Positions 19,500-33,051 of a stretch of DNA of 64,000 nucleotides are shown here, piece by piece. The stretch is from positions 71,888-135,887 of the forward strand of contig JBFIHA010000004.1 of NCBI GenBank assembly GCA_041602035.1, read 5' to 3'. This stretch comes from Gemmatimonadales bacterium. Its GTDB lineage: Bacteria > Gemmatimonadota > Gemmatimonadetes > Gemmatimonadales > GWC2-71-9. The notes below the pieces were generated by a model. The model did not search any database and was not told the origin of the DNA. It saw nothing but the letters and a program-made list of their open reading frames with translations. Position 1 is the stretch's first letter, and each line of letters starts with the position of its first letter. Position numbers and translations under genes: made by a program.

Positions 19500-19584
19500 G
19501 CCGAAGTGGTGGAACTGGTAGACGCGCTGCGTTCAGGGCGCAGTGGGCGAATAGCCCGTGTGGGTTCGAATCCCACCTTCGGCA
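19500..19584 (+). tRNA. tRNA-Leu (anticodon CAG), type II with long variable arm
   Basis: Hand-folded. Acceptor GCCGAAG/CTTCGGC plus discriminator A. Anticodon stem CTGCG/CGCAG with loop TTCAGGG. Variable stem GGGC/GCCC. T-arm GTGGG-TTCGAAT-CCCAC. CCA is not encoded. Confidence 0.9.
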
Positions 19585-19594
19585 CTCAACTAAA

Positions 19595-22884: not shown

Positions 22885-23445
22885 CTACCTCGTCACCTCG
22901 ACCCGCAGGGCATCGTTGAACCGGTTGAAGTAGCTGAAGAGGCCGGCGACCAACGTCACCTCGACGATCTCCTCTTCGTTCCAGTGTCGGGACAGCTCGC
23001 GATAATCCCGGTCAGTCACCGCGTGACCGCTGGCCGCGACGAGTTCACCGAACCGGAGCGCCGCCTTCCATCCCTCCCCCATCCCCTCGAGCGACGCCGG
23101 CACCGTGCTTTCGTCCTCCGGCGTTTCCACACGAACGGCCGAGATCCATGACTCCTGTGCGCCCAGCCGCCTTGCCAAGGCGGTGTGAGAGGCCAGTCAG
23201 TAGCGGCATCGGTTGATGGATGACACACGTACCGCCACCAACTCTTTGAGCAACGGGGGCACGTCGCCCTCGTTCATCACCGTCCGGAAATGTGCGATCA
23301 TGGTCTGCAGGTGCCGCGGTCGCGCGGCCACCGTCCGAAACATGTTCGGGATATTCCCCCGCTCGCGCAGGTAGGTCTCGAAGATCGCGCGCACGTCGCC
23401 GTCTACGTCATCGGGCCCACGGGGTCGAATACGGGGTTCGGTCAT
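22885..23445 (-). CDS. AhpD-like / carboxymuconolactone decarboxylase-family protein with in-frame TGA (23197-23199) at the second Cys of CxxC: candidate selenoprotein
   Basis: Track ORFs 23197..23553 and 22885..23178 are in the same frame. Reading through gives ...LKELVAVRVSSINRCRY-[TGA]-LASHTALARRLGAQ..., which fits the family motif C-x-x-C-x-x-x-H with TGA at the second Cys. The ATG at 23443-23445 gives MTEPRIRPRG. Confidence 0.7.
23167..23183 (-). promoter_or_regulatory. SECIS-like hairpin downstream of the AhpD-like UGA
   Basis: In the mRNA: CCGCCU-[UGGCA]-AGGCGG. 6-bp stem, with the apical loop at +23..+27 from the U of UGA. A possible lower stem pairs UGACU with AGUCA. Confidence 0.45.
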
Positions 23446-23646: not shown

Positions 23647-24294
23647 TCAGGCAAGGGGAAACGCACCAGTGAGGAACGGATTCGACGCGCGTTCGCGACC
23701 CACTGTGGTTTCGGGACCGTGGCCGCAATACACGATGGTCTCGTCCGGGAGCGCCAGCAATTCCCGCCGGATGCTCTCCAGCAACGTCGTACCGTCACCA
23801 CCAGGAAGATCCACCCGGCCCACGGAGCCGGCGAACAGGGCGTCCCCGACAAAGGCAATCCCGTGACCCACGAACGCCACCGAGCCCGGGCTGTGACCGG
23901 GAACGTGCCGGACGGTGAACCGGTACGGTCCGACCGCGAGGGTGTCGCCCGCGTGAAGTTCGTGCTGCGGGGGCGGCGGTGGATCAACACGGATGCCGAA
24001 CCAGGCGCCTTGGCTCGCCGCGGCATCGTACAGCTGCCGATCCGCAGGATGGAGATACACTGGAACCGCTCGGCACTCGACCACGGCTGCCACCCCTTGG
24101 ATGTGATCGAGATGTGCGTGGGTCAACCAGACGGCACGGAGATCGAGGTGCTCTGATTCGAGTCGCTCGAGAAACAACTCGGCCTCTTCTCCAGGGTCGA
24201 CGATCACCGCATCCTGGCTCGCATCGTCCGCGATGATAAAGCCGTTCTCCTGAAACGCCCCCGTCGTGAGGCAGACAACCCTAGGATGCGCCAA
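23647..24294 (-). CDS. MBL-fold metallo-hydrolase (glyoxalase II / YcbL-like)
   Basis: Contains THAHLDHIQG, the HxHxDH motif, and VPGHSPGS. The start is uncertain: a TTG at 24292-24294 is proposed, while the ORF is open to 24384. Confidence 0.8.
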   Translation of the reverse strand: MAHPRVVCLTTGAFQENGFIIADDASQDAVIVDPGEEAELFLERLESEHLDLRAVWLTHAHLDHIQGVAAVVECRAVPVYLHPADRQLYDAAASQGAWFGIRVDPPPPPQHELHAGDTLAVGPYRFTVRHVPGHSPGSVAFVGHGIAFVGDALFAGSVGRVDLPGGDGTTLLESIRRELLALPDETIVYCGHGPETTVGRERASNPFLTGAFPLA

Positions 24295-25297
24295 TGCCGG
24301 CCGGCTCCCCGCGCTCCCGTTCGCGATCCTGGCGATCGACCAAGTACTTCTCCACGGCCATCGCCGCTGTCGTCGCGTCGCCAACCGCCGTCGTGATCTG
24401 ACGAACGAGCTGCACGCGGAGATCGCCGGCGGCGAACAGACCGGGAATCGACGTCATCATGTGACTGTCTGTGATGATGTACCCGCCAGCATCGTGGTCG
24501 AAGTGGCCTTTGATAAGTCCAGAATTCGGCGTGAACCCGATGAAGATGAACACTCCGCCAACGGGTAAGGTCGACTGCTCGCCCGTCTGCGTGTCCTTCA
24601 GGCGGAGTTGCGTCACACCTTTCGGGTCGCCCTCGACTTCCTCGACCACCCTGTTCCAGATCACCGCGATCTTTGGATTGGCGAGTGCGCGCTTCTGGAT
24701 GATCGGCGAGGCCCGAAGCTCGTCTCGCCGGTGAATGATGTACACCTTGGAGGCATAGCGCGTGAGGTAGTCGGCCTCCTCCACGGCGGCATCTCCACCT
24801 CCGATCACCGCCAGCACCTCGCCCTTGAAGAAGGCTCCGTCGCACACGGCACAGTACGAGACACCGCGTCCGGCAAACTCCTTCTCACCCGGGACGTCCA
24901 GTTTCCGCGGAGTGCCACCCGCCGTGATGATCACCGCCGGCGCCCGGTACTCCTTATCGAGCTGCGTGGTGACATCGAAGGTGCCGTCCGCTCGCTTGGC
25001 GATCGACTCCACCGTATCCATCACGAACTCGGCCCCGAACTTTTTGGCGTGATCAGCCATGCGCTGCGCCAGTTCGGGCCCCTTGATGCTCTCGAACCCG
25101 ATGTAGTCTTCGATCAGATCCGTGTTGAGGAGCTCACCACCCGGCATGCCGCGCTCGATCACGAGTGTTTTGAGCATCCCACGGCCCGCGTACATCGCTG
25201 CACAAAGCCCAGCGGGCCCCGCACCGACGATGATCACATCGTAGCCCTGTTCCGCGTCTCGGTCTTTCCGTTTCACGACTCCCTCGACTCCCATCAT
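24281..25297 (-). CDS. trxB: Thioredoxin-disulfide reductase
   Basis: From the internal ATG at 25297: MMGVEG...YDVIIVGAGPAGLCAAMYAGRG. Has the redox-active CAVCDG motif and a second Rossmann motif, AVIGGGDAAVEEA. Confidence 0.93.
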   Translation of the reverse strand: MMGVEGVVKRKDRDAEQGYDVIIVGAGPAGLCAAMYAGRGMLKTLVIERGMPGGELLNTDLIEDYIGFESIKGPELAQRMADHAKKFGAEFVMDTVESIAKRADGTFDVTTQLDKEYRAPAVIITAGGTPRKLDVPGEKEFAGRGVSYCAVCDGAFFKGEVLAVIGGGDAAVEEADYLTRYASKVYIIHRRDELRASPIIQKRALANPKIAVIWNRVVEEVEGDPKGVTQLRLKDTQTGEQSTLPVGGVFIFIGFTPNSGLIKGHFDHDAGGYIITDSHMMTSIPGLFAAGDLRVQLVRQITTAVGDATTAAMAVEKYLVDRQDRERERGEPAGIGAS

Positions 25298-25478
25298 AGT
25301 TCCGAGCTGTGTAGCATCGGTTCTCCAGCCTGCAGGCAGCATGCCGGTGCGTCGATCCCCGGCGATGCGACGGGCACGCCCGCTCCGGTGCCACCTCCTC
25401 AACAGCGGACGATCGGCTGACGTTCCCGTCGACCGTCGTAACCTATCACCGGTGGCCGCTGGAACGTGTCCGCGTTGC

Positions 25479-25919
25479 TCACTGCAGCGCGGCGAGCACC
25501 TCCTTGGCTCCGGGAGCGCCCCGGGCGGCAAATACCACGGTCCCGTCCCGATCGATCAGCACCACCGAGCGTTGGGTCTTCTGCCCGTCGGCCTTGAGGG
25601 CCCCGAACGTCCCCGTGGTCTCGCGATCCGGATCGCTCAGCAACGGGAACGGGAGCTTGAGCTTGGATGCGTAACGACCGTGGGCCTCGACGCCCGCCGG
25701 GTTGACGCCAAATGGCTGCACGTCCTGCTTCCGAAATCGCTCGATCTCATCGCGCACGGCGGAGAGTTGGCGGTTTCACCCCGGCGTGTTGTTCCCAGGA
25801 TAAAACACCAAGAACACGCGTGAGCCCTGCAACACGTCCGACAGCCGATACCGCTTCCCATCCGACGCGTCTAATGCGAAGTCCGGGGCGGCCTCCCCGA
25901 CGGTAATGAGGTCGGTCAT
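25479..25919 (-). CDS. Bcp-type peroxiredoxin with in-frame TGA (25776-25778) at the peroxidatic Cys: candidate selenocysteine peroxiredoxin
   Basis: Track ORFs 25776..25976 and 25479..25757 share a frame. Reading through gives MTDLITVGEAAPDFAL...VFLVFYPGNNTPG-[TGA]-NRQLSAVRDEIERFRKQDVQPFGVNP...PFPLLSDPD...VVLIDRDG, against the family consensus FYPxxxTPGCTxE. The ATG at 25917-25919 overlaps the PHP gene stop (ATGA). Confidence 0.75.
25745..25765 (-). promoter_or_regulatory. SECIS-like hairpin downstream of the peroxiredoxin UGA
   Basis: In the mRNA, +14..+34 from the U of UGA: UCUC-CGC-[CGUGC]-GCG-(AU bulge)-GAGA. The apical loop has GU at +22/+23. Confidence 0.45.
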
Positions 25920-26761
25920 CCTACCTCCTCGACTGAGATGCGTTGCTGGTGAAGGTACTCGATGTCGTTCAGCCACTGTGCTGGAACGGTGATGCTTCCA
26001 AGTGGCGCTCGATTCGGCTCGTCCGCGTCATCGCCGTGCCAATCAGTTCCACCCGTCCGCACCATACCCAGTGCGCCCGTGAGGTGCTCGATTTCTGTTC
26101 CGCGGCGGTCGTCGTGCAACGGATGCCGTACCTCCGCTCCGTCGACTCCGCGGGCGCGCAGCGACGCAAGACCGCGACGCGTCGCCCGGGAGCCTAGGTG
26201 CGCCGCCGACGTGACCCCCCCGAGCGAGCGGACCAGCCCCGTGACTTCCCGAACGCTGGGGAGGTCTTTGGGGACGAACGCAGGACGCCGAGAGCCGAGG
26301 AAGCGGTGGAACGCTTCGGGGATGTCGGCGACGTGACCGCCGCGAACCAACACCCTGGCGACGTGGGGTCGCCCGACCGCGCCGGCTCCGGCGGCGGACT
26401 CGACGTCCTCGAAGGAGACCGGAACTCCCAGCTCGCGGAGTCGGTCCACCATCTGCTGGGCCCGCACCACGCGCTTGCCCCGCTTGTCCGCGAGGAAGGC
26501 TTCGAGTCGAGGCTCCCCAAGTGGGAGGAAGTACGCTAGGAGATGCATCTCCCCCCACGGAGCCGCCACCGAGAACTCACATCCGGCGATGACCCGCACC
26601 CCCAGACGGCCCCCTTCGGCCTCCGCGTCGGCCAGGCCGGCCAGCGTGTCGTGGTCTGTCAGGGCGATGACCGAAAGCCCGTGTGCCGCCGCACGTCGCG
26701 CCACCTCCGTCGGCGGACATGCACCGTCGGAGGCGCTCGAATGCATGTGCAAGTCGATCAC
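25916..26761 (-). CDS. PHP-domain metal-dependent phosphoesterase (TrpH/YciV-like)
   Basis: MIDLHMHSSASDGACPP...IALTDHDTLAG; 281 aa. Confidence 0.85.
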   Translation of the reverse strand: MIDLHMHSSASDGACPPTEVARRAAAHGLSVIALTDHDTLAGLADAEAEGGRLGVRVIAGCEFSVAAPWGEMHLLAYFLPLGEPRLEAFLADKRGKRVVRAQQMVDRLRELGVPVSFEDVESAAGAGAVGRPHVARVLVRGGHVADIPEAFHRFLGSRRPAFVPKDLPSVREVTGLVRSLGGVTSAAHLGSRATRRGLASLRARGVDGAEVRHPLHDDRRGTEIEHLTGALGMVRTGGTDWHGDDADEPNRAPLGSITVPAQWLNDIEYLHQQRISVEEVG

Positions 26762-27051
26762 GTGTGCGGCACGGAATCTCTCGCGCCGTACGCGATCTCC
26801 GGGCTCATCGCCCCAGGCTGTGATTGCCGAAAGAGCTCGAGCAGTTGCAGACCGGTCAACTCCTGCAGTGCCACATCCCAGCGTCGCGTTCCGATTGGCG
26901 AGTAACGGGTGACCCGGCGCACGCGGTCCGGGCCCGACCCCTTCTCAAACACTAACCCGAACTCGTCACGGTCGTACGCCGTCACACGGCCCGAGGGATA
27001 GACCTGCCACATCTCGCCGTCGACCTCGATCGTTCGTCGCGCCATGCTCAC
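26758..27051 (-). CDS. Hypothetical protein (97 aa)
   Basis: Overlaps both neighbouring genes by 4 nt, which suggests translational coupling. No recognisable motif. Confidence 0.5.
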   Translation of the reverse strand: MSMARRTIEVDGEMWQVYPSGRVTAYDRDEFGLVFEKGSGPDRVRRVTRYSPIGTRRWDVALQELTGLQLLELFRQSQPGAMSPEIAYGARDSVPHT

Positions 27052-28379
27052 ACCGCTCCCTCAGAGAACGCCTCGAGATCCTGCTTCACGTCAGCCATGA
27101 ACCGGTCCGCGTCGGCGCCATCGACAATGCGATGGTCGTACGAGATGGACAGGAGCCCCATGGTCCGAATCGCCATCACATCCTGACCGTCTTCGAGGGT
27201 GAGCACCTTGGGGCGCTTCTCGATCGAGCCGATACCAAGGATGGCCACCTGCGGCTGGCTGATGATGGGTGCTCCCGCGTAGGAGCCGAACACCCCCGGA
27301 TTCGTGATCGTGAAGGTCCCCTGCTGCACCTCATCAGGCGACAGGCGTTTGACGCGGGCCCGTTCGGCGAGATCCGCCACCTTCTTGGCGATTCCAAGCA
27401 AGGACAACTCGTCTGCATGCTTCAACACGGGGACGATGAGGCCCCAATCGAGCGCCACGGCGATACCGATGTTGATGGACTTCCGATAGATGATGGCGTC
27501 GCCGCTGACCGACGCGTTGAGCACGGGATGCTTCCGCAGATTGTCGGCGATGACCTTGATGATGAACGTCAGGTAGGTCGGGTTCGCCCCGCGCTCCTGG
27601 TAGTCTTTCTTGATTCGAGCCCGGAGCCGGGCGACCTCGGTGTAGTCGATCTCATAGTAGCTCGTAACGTGCGCGGATACCCGCCGCGACAGCACCATGT
27701 GATCTGCCGTGAGCTTCCGGATCCGGCTCATCGGCACCACTTGGTCCCCCGGCCAGGGCTCGACCGAGGGGTGGGTAACGGTACCGGCGGACGGTGCCGC
27801 CGCGGGCGCCGCGGGCGCTGCCGCCGGGGCGCGATGCTCCCCGCGCTCGATGAACTCGAGGATGTCCTTCTTCGTCACCCGGCCCCCATGGCCCGACCCC
27901 TCCACTCGTCCGATATCGACACCGTGCTCCGCGGCGATCTTCCGGACCAGGGGAGTGGACCGCCGACGCAGCCGCTCCTCGGCATTTTCGTCGCCAGCAG
28001 GCGCTTTGGGGGGGGTACTCGGTGGCGCGGGGGCGGCCGCCGGCGCCGGCGTGGGCGTCTCGGCCGGCTTCGGGGCGGGCGTGGCAGCAGCCTCCGCCGG
28101 CGGCGGTGCGGGCGGCGCCGAGCCGGCAACCCCCGCGCCATCAGTATCAATCACCGCGATCACGGTCTGGACGGCGACCGTCTCGCCCTCACCGACCTTG
28201 ATCTCCGCCAGCACGCCGGCCGTGGGTGCAGGGATCTCGGCATCTACTTTGTCCGTCGAAATCTCCAGGATGGCCTCGTCTCGCTTCACCGAGTCCCCCA
28301 CCTGCTTGAGCCACCGCGACACGGTGCCTTCGGCGATGGACTCGCCCATCTGAGGCATGATCACATCGACACGCGCCAT
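27048..28379 (-). CDS. 2-oxoacid dehydrogenase E2 (dihydrolipoamide acyltransferase)
   Basis: Lipoyl domain (EISTDKVDAEIPAP), Ala/Pro linker, E3/E1-binding domain (PLVRKIAAEHGVD) and a catalytic domain with DHRIVDGA. Confidence 0.92.
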   Translation of the reverse strand: MARVDVIMPQMGESIAEGTVSRWLKQVGDSVKRDEAILEISTDKVDAEIPAPTAGVLAEIKVGEGETVAVQTVIAVIDTDGAGVAGSAPPAPPPAEAAATPAPKPAETPTPAPAAAPAPPSTPPKAPAGDENAEERLRRRSTPLVRKIAAEHGVDIGRVEGSGHGGRVTKKDILEFIERGEHRAPAAAPAAPAAAPSAGTVTHPSVEPWPGDQVVPMSRIRKLTADHMVLSRRVSAHVTSYYEIDYTEVARLRARIKKDYQERGANPTYLTFIIKVIADNLRKHPVLNASVSGDAIIYRKSINIGIAVALDWGLIVPVLKHADELSLLGIAKKVADLAERARVKRLSPDEVQQGTFTITNPGVFGSYAGAPIISQPQVAILGIGSIEKRPKVLTLEDGQDVMAIRTMGLLSISYDHRIVDGADADRFMADVKQDLEAFSEGAV

Positions 28380-30498: not shown

Positions 30499-33051
30499 TC
30501 ATGTCATCTGGGTTGGTGTGAACGCCCGGAGTCGCAGGCTGTTGCCCACGACGCTCAGGCTGGATGCTGCCATCGCCGCGCTCGCGACGATCGGACTGAG
30601 CAGGATCCCCGTGAACGGATACAACACCCCGGCGGCGAGCGGGATCCCCAACACATTGTACACGAAGGCAAAGAACAGATTACCGCGAATGGTCCGCATG
30701 GTGCGTCTCGACAGCTCGATGGCTGCGACGACGCCGTTCACGTCCCCGCGGATCAGCGTGATATCGGAGGCCTCCACTGCCACGTCGGTGCCCGTCCCCA
30801 AGGCGAACCCGATGTCGGCCTGGGCGAGTGCCGGGGCGTCATTGATCCCGTCGCCGACCATCGCGACGACTCGTCCGCCCTCCTGCAAACGCTTGATTTC
30901 GTCCGTCTTGTCCCGAGGGTCCACTTCAGCGATCACGCGGTCGATGCCGACCTCTTTCCCGACGAGGCGCGCCGCCACCTTGCTGTCACCACTCAGGAGC
31001 ACGACTTCGAGGCCCATGTCCTTGAGCCGGCTGACCGCCCCCTTCGCCCCGGGCTTCAGCTCGTCGGCGATGATGATCGCGCCCTGTACCGTGTCGTTGA
31101 CCACCACGATCGCGGGCGACCGTCCCGCCAAGATGTGGCGCTCCACCTCCTGTTCCAGGGAGCCCAGTGGCAGGCTCCGCTCACTGGCGTGACGCACGCT
31201 GATAACCTCGACGAGGAACTTGCCGACGATCCCGCGCGCGCCCCGCCCTTCCATCGCCACGAACCGCTCCACCGTCGGCGTCTCGAGGCCCTTCGCGCCG
31301 GCAGCGTGAACGATGGCGGAGGCCAACGGGTGCTCGGATCGCGCCTCGACGGCGGCGGCCAGGCGTAGCAACTCGTCCGGAGCCACGATGGACCCGTCTT
31401 TGCGCCTCGCGCCAAGCACCTGCGTCACCACCGGCTCGCCCACGGTGATGGTACCGGTCTTGTCGAACACCACGGTCTCGATGCGCCGTACGGTCTCGAG
31501 CGCCTCACCACCGCGGATCAGAATCCCGTGCTCCGCCCCCTTGCCGGTTCCCACCATGATGGCCGTCGGGGTCGCCAGACCAAGGGCGCAGGGGCAGGCA
31601 ATGACCAGGACCGTCACGAGCGCGACCGTGCTGTACACGGCCTTGGGGTCCGGCCCCAGAATCCACCAGACGACGAAGGCCGCGATGGCGATGGCAATCA
31701 CGATGGGCACGAAGATGCCGGCCACAGTGTCTGCCAGCCGCTGGGCCGGTGCCTTGGTGCCCTGCGCCTCCTCCACGAGCCGAACGATCTGGGCCAGCGC
31801 GGTATCTCGACCGACCGCGGTAGTCTCGTACATGAACGACCCCGTGGTATTGACCGTACCCCCCACGACCGTGTCGCCCGCCTTCTTCTCGACCGGCAAG
31901 GGCTCACCCGTCAGCATCGCCTCGCTGACACTCGATTCGCCCGACCGCACGATGCCGTCCACCGGCAGCGTCTCTCCGGGACGAACGATCACAAGGTCAC
32001 CGACCTGCACTTCTTCGATCGGGATCTCCACATCCTGGCCGGCACGCTGCACCCGCGCCGTCTTCGGACGGAGCCCGAGCAGGCGACGGATGGCCGCGGA
32101 CGTCTGCCCTTTGGCGCGCGCTTCCAGCAGCCGCCCGAGCAGGATCAGGGCGATGATGGCATTGACCGCTTCGAAGTAGACGTCCGCGGGGAGTCCCGCC
32201 CGCTCGAACACCCACGGGAGGAGCGTGGCCACCGACGAATACAGGAAGGCGGCCCCAGTGCCAACGGCGATCAACGTATTCATGTCGGCGCTACGATGCT
32301 TGGCCCCACTCCACGCACCACGGAAGAACTGCCACCCACTCCAGAACAGCACGGGTAGTGTGAGCAGCATGAGGCCGAGCTTGAGGCCGACGGGGTTCAC
32401 CTCGGCGAAGGCATACAGCGAGGGGAGCAGATTCCCGAGCGTCTGGTTCAGCGGTTGCATCAGCCGCATGACGAGATCGTGCTCCTTGGCCCCCATGACC
32501 CCCATGAGCGGCATCGATCCCACCATGGTGAGCAGGGCCGCCACCGCGGCCACGGCAAACTTGAGGGCGAGCTGACGGACCTCGGCCTGTCGTTTGAGCC
32601 GTTCTCGCTCGACCGGGTCTTCTGCGGCCACGGGCTCAGCTACCGTGAAGCCCGCCTCCGACACCGCCCGTTCGAGCTCCTGGGCGGTCACGAGGCCGGG
32701 GACGTACTCCACCCGCACGTGCTCGGTGGCCTGATTCGCCACCGCGGACAGCACTCCGGGGAGCGCCGAGAGACCGCTCTCGAGACGGCTTACGCCCGTG
32801 GCATAGTGCAACCCCTCGACGCCAAAGCTCACCGTAGCCTTGGCGCAGTCATAGCCCGCCTCACGAACCGCCCGCACGAGATCCGCCACCTTCACCACCG
32901 AGTCGTCGATGGTCACCGTGGCCTTCCCCGTGGCGTAGTTCACCGCGGCATCGGTCACGCCGTTGGCTCGGGCCAGACGCTTCTGCACGGTCGTGGCGCA
33001 CGCCCCGCAGGTCATGCCCTCCACCGGAAGGGTGACTCGCGCCCTAGGCAT
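30499..33051 (-). CDS. copA: Copper-translocating P1B-type ATPase
   Basis: 850 aa. The N-terminal HMA domain has GMTCGAC. The second HMA-like domain lacks CxxC (GLHYATG). Also has CPC ([11 protein letters not shown]), DKTGT, and GDGINDAP. Confidence 0.95.

Follow-up and report, generated by a model that had tools for sequence, protein, structure and literature searches.

A probable selenocysteine-containing BCP/PrxQ-type peroxiredoxin, encoded through an in-frame TGA, in a Gemmatimonadales bacterium

Within a stretch of 64,000 nucleotides (nt) from a Gemmatimonadales bacterium (assembly GCA_041602035.1, contig JBFIHA010000004.1, positions 71,888 to 135,887; the whole stretch is called the window in the following, and all positions refer to it), two open reading frames (ORFs) on the minus strand together resemble one peroxiredoxin (Prx) and are interrupted by a TGA codon. 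The locus therefore raises the question whether a peroxiredoxin gene has been broken here or whether the TGA is read as an amino acid. The comparative data presented below make it very probable that both ORFs belong to a single, unbroken gene for a peroxiredoxin of the BCP/PrxQ type, in which UGA encodes selenocysteine (Sec).

Layout of the gene and position of the TGA

The putative Sec-Prx gene and its signals, all on the minus strand and the Shine-Dalgarno and stop signals read from the sequence, are arranged as follows.

25479..25919, minus strand: Sec-Prx gene for a BCP/PrxQ-like peroxiredoxin of 146 amino acids (aa), a single frame with one in-frame TGA
25930-25924, minus strand: Shine-Dalgarno sequence GAGGAGG ahead of the ATG
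25919-25917, minus strand: start codon ATG, overlapping the stop codon of the upstream PHP gene (TGA, 25918-25916) as ATGA
25778-25776, minus strand: in-frame TGA, codon 48, at the peroxidatic position (P41/T45/U48 of the motif PxxxTxxC)
25481-25479, minus strand: the gene's own stop codon TGA

The two pieces given by ORF callers (25776..25976 and 25479..25757) lie in the same frame and are split by the TGA alone; the GTG that serves as 'start' of the downstream piece (25757) is located 18 nt beyond the TGA, just as a first-pass annotation of this locus had described it. The read-through product proposed there, ...VFLVFYPGNNTPG[TGA]NRQLSAVRDEIE..., is indeed what the frame gives, with FYPGNNTPG[TGA] at the active site. 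With Cys substituted for the TGA, this product matches the Pfam family AhpC/TSA (PF00578) end to end (E 3e-33, residues 7-130, profile positions 1-123 of 124), and 19 peroxiredoxin chains of the PDB match it at E<1e-8. The active-site motif P41-G-N-N-T45-P-G-[UGA]48 is present and the conserved catalytic Arg, R117, is invariant in 36 aligned sequences. The placement of the TGA at the peroxidatic Cys of a Bcp-type peroxiredoxin, which had been proposed from the sequence block alone, is borne out by two alignments: the TGA column corresponds to the peroxidatic Cys of the BCP structure 5enu (FYPKDNTPGC) in the PDB alignment and to Cys in the alignment with Cys-containing homologs.

Homologous loci were collected by two scans. 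From a scan in which every GTDB species was represented by one genome, 80 of 476 matches were taken in as loci, and a metagenome scan seeded with Cys-type relatives contributed another 80. The Sec set referred to below comprises the window and 134 other loci with TGA (79 from genomes and 55 from metagenomes), the Cys set 26 loci (1 from a genome and 25 from metagenomes).

Within the Sec set, a Shine-Dalgarno-like motif precedes the real start in 98 of the 135 loci and the internal GTG in none of them (0/135). The translational coupling to the upstream PHP gene by ATGA, already pointed out for the window, is found as ATGA or GTGA in 126 of the 135 loci. The mean column entropy at codon positions 1, 2 and 3 of the TGA forms amounts to 0.65, 0.57 and 1.26 bits before the TGA and to 0.70, 0.63 and 1.26 bits after it, and in the 44 codons preceding the TGA no other in-frame stop was found in any of the 135 loci. 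Since the variation is dominated by the third position, stray stops are absent and the Shine-Dalgarno motif is present at the true start only, both parts of the gene can be regarded as coding. Judged by this codon pattern, both halves are under purifying selection as protein, so the earlier impression that neither of them is decaying holds for the whole set.

A close relative of the window organism is transcribed in situ: a metatranscriptome contig from marine sediment (run X17), which is 95-99% alike, covers positions 25523-25752, that is, part of the C-terminal half.

Conservation of the TGA and of the hairpin behind it

Among the species-representative genomes, 79 of 80 carry TGA at the homologous codon, the sole exception being locus L061 with TGC. 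The metagenome loci are divided into 55 with TGA and 25 with TGC or TGT (80 in total). All genome-scan loci except one are labelled Gemmatimonadota. This one, L030 (DATADW010000224.1, 1783 base pairs (bp)), belongs to a metagenome-assembled genome (MAG) labelled Acidimicrobiia; its Sec-Prx hardly differs from the one in the Gemmatimonadales locus L029, and the contig is probably mis-binned. A neighbour-joining tree implies no fewer than two changes between Sec and Cys within the sampled family. In this sample, TGA is conserved at the peroxidatic codon across Gemmatimonadota, and the stop does not scatter over different positions in the orthologs, as it stands at the homologous position in the 134 other loci.

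The region directly behind the TGA contains a further conserved element, for which we count the U of UGA as nt 1.

25745..25765, minus strand: SECIS-like hairpin (SECIS: selenocysteine insertion sequence), nt 14-34, recognized by comparative conservation and one compensatory swap
25758-25754, minus strand: hairpin loop C21-G22-U23-G24-C25, 5 nt (CGUGC)
25746..25769, minus strand: frozen core CAACUCUCCGCCGUGCGCGAYGAG, nt 10-33, overlapping the codons for Q L S A V R D E

The hairpin that the first-pass annotation had drawn at nt 14-34, UCUC-CGC-[CGUGC]-GCG-(AU)-GAGA with GU at 22/23 in the loop, is present. Its lower stem consists of the four pairs 14-34, 15-33, 16-32 and 17-31 and its upper stem of the three pairs 18-28, 19-27 and 20-26, and between them A29 and Y30 form a 2-nt bulge on the 3' side; the E. 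coli SECIS has a bulged U on the 5' side. The hairpin begins 10 nt past the UGA codon, and the distance from UGA to the loop is 17 nt.

The 21 nt of the hairpin are essentially invariant in all 135 TGA forms, including sites that are 4- to 6-fold degenerate. Across 80 Sec forms, CTC TCC GCC GTG CGC, which encode L, S, A, V and R, have a codon entropy of 0-0.17 bits, whereas Pro, Gly, Thr, Leu and Ser residues that are likewise invariant elsewhere in the gene show 1.2-1.9 bits of synonymous variation. Free variation within the core is limited to the third position of the Asp codon (GAT 47, GAC 33), a base that is located in the predicted bulge. In the same 80 sequences 99% of the pair cells are paired, and in L065 and L068 the pair C15:G33 is swapped for G15:C33. 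An alternative register with the pairs 13-33, 14-32 and 15-31, which is the one found in the minimum free energy (MFE) fold, was rejected: the double change in L065/L068 breaks it, and it shows no covariation.

The Cys set behaves differently. All seven pairs are intact in 128 of the 135 Sec forms, whereas the 26 Cys forms keep only 3-6 of the seven, and on average the hairpin has an energy of -5.5 kcal/mol in the Sec forms and of +1.2 kcal/mol in the Cys forms. The Cys forms encode a near-identical peptide (NRQLSAVRD), for which they use the codons CAG, CTG/CTT, TCG/TGC/AGT, GCG/GCA, GTC and CGT/CGG. Since they have lost the freezing and break the stem, the constraint on the hairpin is tied to the UGA, as it is for a SECIS. 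By this comparison, the hairpin is an RNA element that is under selection at the nucleotide level in the UGA forms only.

In the bSECIS model of bacterial SECIS elements, the apical loop has 3-9 nt with a G in the first two loop positions (usually followed by G or U), the UGA-to-loop distance is 16-37 nt, the upper stem has 4-16 bp and the MFE is <= -7.5 kcal/mol (PMC13188914). The geometry of a bacterial SECIS, which had been claimed for the hairpin from the beginning, therefore stands with regard to loop size (5 nt), the G-U (G22-U23 at loop positions 2-3) and spacing (17 nt); the fit is less clear with regard to the stem, which has 3 bp, then the 2-nt bulge and then 4 bp, and to the energy, for which the core alone stays above the limit. 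The same picture emerges from the comparison with the fdhF-type SECIS of E. coli and the bSECIS consensus (PMC13188914). The window hairpin resembles them as a hairpin of the coding region that follows the UGA and has a small loop with G and then U, but its upper stem comprises only 3 bp before the 2-nt 3' bulge and its core is weaker than -7.5 kcal/mol. A scan of the whole window with Rfam returned two tRNAs only, with no match at the Sec-Prx locus and no match to a bacterial SECIS.

Decoding of the UGA and the competing explanations

Several observations weigh against an interpretation of the UGA as a Sec codon. With its 3+4 bp and a bulge the hairpin is short, and its core has -5.5 to -6.5 kcal/mol and thus misses the -7.5 kcal/mol of the bSECIS model. 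Over nt 1-54 this value is reached by 74% of the sequences if the hairpin is enforced and by 87% if folding is unconstrained. A 91-nt fold has no extra stability in comparison to shuffled sequences (z = 0.11). The covariation consists of a single event common to two related loci, while most of the pairs never vary. In searches with the E. coli K-12 proteins (tblastn), selA, selB and selD were not found in the 64-kb window or in any of the fetched loci, and ARAGORN did not find a tRNA-Sec in the window or in the first 60 fetched loci. Finally, the one RNA contig that was found ends short of the UGA, as its coverage is confined to 25523-25752.

Because most pairs never vary, the exact structure of the hairpin rests mainly on conservation, and because the 91-nt fold is no better than shuffles, comparative tests took the place of thermodynamic stability as evidence. 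The RNA element is thus supported by comparison and not by energy. The missing sel genes are uninformative, since sel genes need not be linked to the genes of selenoproteins.

The use of UGA in the surroundings is of more help. UGA is an ordinary stop codon here, which ends the PHP gene, the Sec-Prx gene itself and the gene for CopA, the latter at position 837 of the 838 positions of the profile. Since UGA ends neighbouring genes where their family profiles end, a reassignment of UGA throughout the lineage does not apply. A scan of the window for in-frame TGAs with coding-like flanks yielded a second gene of the same kind.

22885..23445, minus strand: AhpD-like/CMD gene with a CxxU motif, 186 aa (ATG at 23445, TAG at 22885)
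23199-23197, minus strand: in-frame TGA of the AhpD-like gene, motif C-R-Y-U, at the second Cys of the CxxC of AhpD
23167..23183, minus strand: SECIS hairpin of the AhpD-like gene, CCGCCUU-GGC-AAGGCGG, 7 bp, loop GGC, 20 nt from UGA to loop

This gene is located 2.6 kb downstream of the Sec-Prx gene on the same strand and is cut by ORF callers into pieces of 118 aa and 97 aa. Its read-through product matches TIGR00778 with 54.9 bits (cut-off 27.8) and Pfam CMD with 58.3 bits, besides weaker matches to two '(seleno)protein' families of NCBIfam, and AhpD-like proteins with CxxU are already established as a family of selenoproteins (PMC1088965). The TGA is kept at the same column in 22 other loci and is replaced, by TGT, only in L061. 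All cells of the hairpin (100%) are paired in the 23 sequences, with compensatory double changes in three of its seven pairs. The putative sites of UGA recoding are confined to redox-active Cys positions, in two different proteins. The TGA at 30499-30501, which the scan also gave, is simply the stop codon of CopA, which is followed by an in-frame neighbour, and for the remaining top candidates the flanking translations do not resemble a single continuous protein.

Among the species-representative genomes, Cys in the peroxiredoxin is likewise confined to L061. This locus has Cys at both sites, TGC in the Prx gene (L061:10145-10147) and TGT in the AhpD-like gene (L061:14442-14444), and both hairpins are degraded, that of the AhpD-like gene to the point of absence. 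This joint change suggests that the lineage of L061, a Gemmatimonadaceae MAG, has lost Sec decoding. From UGA as a normal stop codon, the second Sec-type gene and the joint Cys state of L061 we infer that the genome of the window is competent for Sec insertion. In source data on Challenger Deep sediments, selA and selD are each present in a fraction of 0.864 of the Gemmatimonadota MAGs (PMC8938466), and the isolate name of one of our loci, L019 (B60T1B8), fits the MAG naming scheme of that study.

One could assume that the UGA is read through without selenium, either by a near-cognate tRNA for Cys or Trp or by a reassignment throughout the lineage, with the hairpin acting as a generic stimulator of read-through. 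The short and weak hairpin would agree with this, as would the fact that the Sec machinery has not been seen in the part of the genome covered by the window. However, UGA terminates the neighbouring genes and hence is not reassigned, the loop G-U and the spacing of the hairpin are those of a bacterial SECIS, the restriction of UGA to redox-active Cys positions of two proteins is a hallmark of Sec, and marine Gemmatimonadota MAGs commonly contain selA and selD. We therefore consider this explanation very unlikely.

Little probability can also be given to the assumption that the gene is a genuine member of the Sec-Prx family but silent in this organism, the Sec machinery having been lost recently so that translation stops at the UGA. 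About 14% of the Gemmatimonadota MAGs in the one data set do lack selA and selD, which could as well be accounted for by incompleteness of MAGs. Against a silent gene speaks that the window has kept two Sec-type genes with intact SECIS hairpins, whereas the pattern expected after such a loss is that of L061, with Cys at both sites and decayed hairpins.

A pseudogene, in which a random nonsense mutation has inactivated a Cys-type Bcp gene, is suggested at first sight by the splitting of the gene by ORF callers and by the presence of the 92-aa C-terminal piece as a separate protein in the databases. However, a random mutation does not explain why the same catalytic codon is TGA in 135 genes that share 55-87% protein identity. 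These TGA forms are not copies of one clonal sequence either (101 distinct 48-mers), they are free of other stops and of frameshifts, with third-position-dominated variation on both sides of the TGA, and the RNA-level constraint goes along with the TGA state. The argument of the first-pass annotation that there is more to the TGA than a chance hit on one codon has thus gained in weight, with TGA at the same column in 134 other loci and a hairpin that is frozen only in TGA forms, and the conservation data effectively refute the pseudogene; we see hardly any room left for it. A sequencing or assembly error for TGC or TGT, for which we found no other point than that TGA is one base away from the Cys codons, is practically out of the question, since independently assembled Logan contigs from three marine-metagenome runs of two studies reproduce the TGA with 0 differences to the window over 25300-26200 and related genomes from many projects carry it as well.

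Taken together, the conservation of the TGA, the constraint on the hairpin that is specific for Sec forms and the alignment of the TGA with the Cys column support the interpretation of the locus as a gene for a selenocysteine peroxiredoxin.

Known relatives, gene neighbourhood and a possible recycling route

That Sec-containing peroxiredoxins are a known selenoprotein family, as had been remarked from the outset, is well documented. The family (COG1225/PF00578, with the motif TxxU) has been known since 2005 from the Sargasso Sea (PMC1088965), was recorded from 78 sequenced bacteria in a survey of 2016 (PMC5029168) and is listed with the motif PxxxTxxU in a review of 2026 (PMC13188914). Because of its PxxxTxxU motif and its COG1225-like similarity, the window gene can be assigned to this known kind. 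It shares with the family the AhpC/TSA fold, the similarity to BCP, Sec at the peroxidatic site of PxxxTxxU, a SECIS directly downstream within the coding region and the existence of widespread Cys homologs. It differs in the SECIS of its clade, which is unusually short and identical in nucleotide sequence across 135 sequences.

PrxU of Eubacterium acidaminophilum (NF040737; Sohling et al. 2001, cited in PMC13188914) likewise has Sec in place of the peroxidatic Cys and is thioredoxin-dependent. However, it belongs to another subfamily. The window protein reaches 47.7 bits with the PrxU model (cut-off 270), has 146 aa where the model has 233 and is similar to BCP/PrxQ rather than to AhpC/Prx1. 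Its nearest relatives are Cys-type Bcp/PrxQ proteins (PDB 5enu, 3drn and 2cx3; E 5e-19 to 1e-12). It agrees with them in size and shares their active-site motif and the conserved Arg, but would carry Sec where they carry Cys, and the resolving Cys that defines atypical 2-Cys BCPs, at +5, is missing. The scores with the equivalog model of E. coli Bcp (PRK09437; 71.5 bits, cut-off 140) and with PrxQ of the Deinococcus type (67.9 bits, cut-off 260) are below the cut-offs, so that the protein is BCP-like by its best match and not an equivalog.

No entry from Gemmatimonadota is contained in the supplementary tables of PMC5029168, and the phylum is not named in the review PMC13188914. In the literature searched on the phylum together with selenoproteins, the Sec-Prx clade of Gemmatimonadota itself appears to be undescribed. 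As had been expected for such a locus, public databases hold it in pieces. The protein database contains dozens of entries of 91-94 aa, labelled 'redoxin domain' or hypothetical protein (one example is from SG8_28), which are 68-89% identical to the C-terminal part and all start at M/VRDEI. Judged by these sequences, they are the same mis-called C-terminal fragment of Sec-Prx in many organisms.

The following genes surround the Sec-Prx gene and the AhpD-like gene.

24281..25297, minus strand: TrxB, thioredoxin-disulfide reductase gene, directly downstream of the Sec-Prx gene (TIGR01292, 379.9 bits, cut-off 343.45)
25916..26761, minus strand: PHP-domain phosphoesterase gene, upstream of and translationally coupled to the Sec-Prx gene
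26758-27051, minus strand: ORF of 97 aa without NCBIfam match, between the E2 and PHP genes, with a 4-nt overlap with each
27048-28379: E2 gene (SucB-like, lipoyl), upstream in the same cluster
30499-33051, minus strand: CopA-type P-type ATPase gene, stop codon TGA at 30499-30501

The matches of the PHP gene to the NCBIfam models of 3',5'-nucleoside bisphosphate phosphatase and RNase RNM fall below the cut-offs. Among loci with enough flanking sequence, the PHP gene adjoins the Prx gene in 112 of 112 Sec loci and in 19 of 19 Cys loci, and all 58 genome loci have a TrxB homolog on the same strand, at a distance of not more than 3.5 kb downstream. Because of its 4-nt overlaps with both neighbours, the 97-aa ORF is probably translated together with the cluster. 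Directly upstream of the E2 gene there is a gene for E1-beta.

Two side observations concern this neighbourhood. The N-terminal metal-binding domain of CopA matches NF041115, 'UxxU metal-binding (seleno)protein', with 74.9 bits at a cut-off of 95; since its ORF is uninterrupted, the domain is presumably a Cys form. A tRNA-Leu(CAG) is encoded at 19500-19585 on the plus strand, about 6 kb downstream of the Prx gene, and likewise in 25 of 60 loci scanned; its orientation differs between loci, which suggests a local inversion in some lineages.

If the UGA is decoded as proposed, the hairpin, with G22-U23 exposed in the loop, would recruit SelB with selenocysteyl-tRNA(Sec) as the ribosome reaches the UGA, and Sec would be inserted at residue 48. 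According to the chemistry of the family, the selenolate of residue 48, in the pocket formed by PxxxTxxU and together with Arg117, would attack peroxides and be converted to the selenenic acid.

The recycling of the selenenic acid is the less evident part. The window protein is entirely free of cysteine, as are 115 of 134 Sec forms counted. None of these 134 forms has Cys at +5 or +6, and position +5 (25761-25763 in the window) is Ser (TCC) in all of them, whereas 13 of 24 Cys forms counted possess a resolving Cys, 11 at +5 and 2 at +6. Because of the Ser at +5 and the lack of any Cys, the protein would be of the 1-Cys type, or rather a '1-Sec' peroxiredoxin, and because it is devoid of cysteines an external thiol or selenol partner would be needed for its recycling. 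Judged by the gene context, the thioredoxin system, fed by the adjacent TrxB, would be the most plausible reductant, since the TrxB gene follows directly and is kept in all of the genome loci mentioned above; the neighbouring Sec-containing AhpD-like protein may join in.

The Ser at +5 might also have a reason at the RNA level. With TGC at this position, G31 would face another G and the pair 17-31 would be lost, so that the SECIS and a resolving Cys at +5 seem to be mutually exclusive at the nucleotide level. One could combine these observations to a relay of peroxide reduction made up of Sec-Prx and the AhpD-like protein, in which the SECIS bars the Cys at +5 and thereby ties the use of Sec to a switch from a 2-Cys to a 1-Sec enzyme. 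The Sec-containing AhpD-like protein would recycle the selenenic acid of the peroxiredoxin and would itself be reduced by TrxB and thioredoxin or by the lipoyl-E2 encoded upstream. The model for such a relay is the mycobacterial system AhpC-AhpD-DlaT-Lpd. As a whole we regard this combination as rather unlikely. A part for E2 in particular was set aside, as the neighbouring E1-beta gene makes a 2-oxoacid dehydrogenase operon the simplest explanation for its presence, and is kept only as a speculation of low probability.

The known mechanisms of Sec decoding and of peroxiredoxins are left unchanged by our analysis, and a specialist will not be surprised by the existence of such an enzyme. The consequences concern annotation in the first place, as the gene and at least 134 orthologs are reported as fragments or hypothetical proteins, although they would actually be full-length selenoenzymes. 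Moreover, the 135 Sec forms with their invariant 21-nt SECIS core and the 26 Cys forms, in which the constraint is released, constitute a natural experiment, and this data set should be useful to study the limits that a minimal bacterial SECIS imposes on the overlapping protein sequence. The Sec-Prx gene and the AhpD-like gene next to it jointly indicate a widespread use of selenocysteine in Gemmatimonadota, a phylum that is abundant in soil and sediment and is not named in the selenoproteome reviews searched. The peroxide defence of Gemmatimonadota would then hinge on the supply of selenium.

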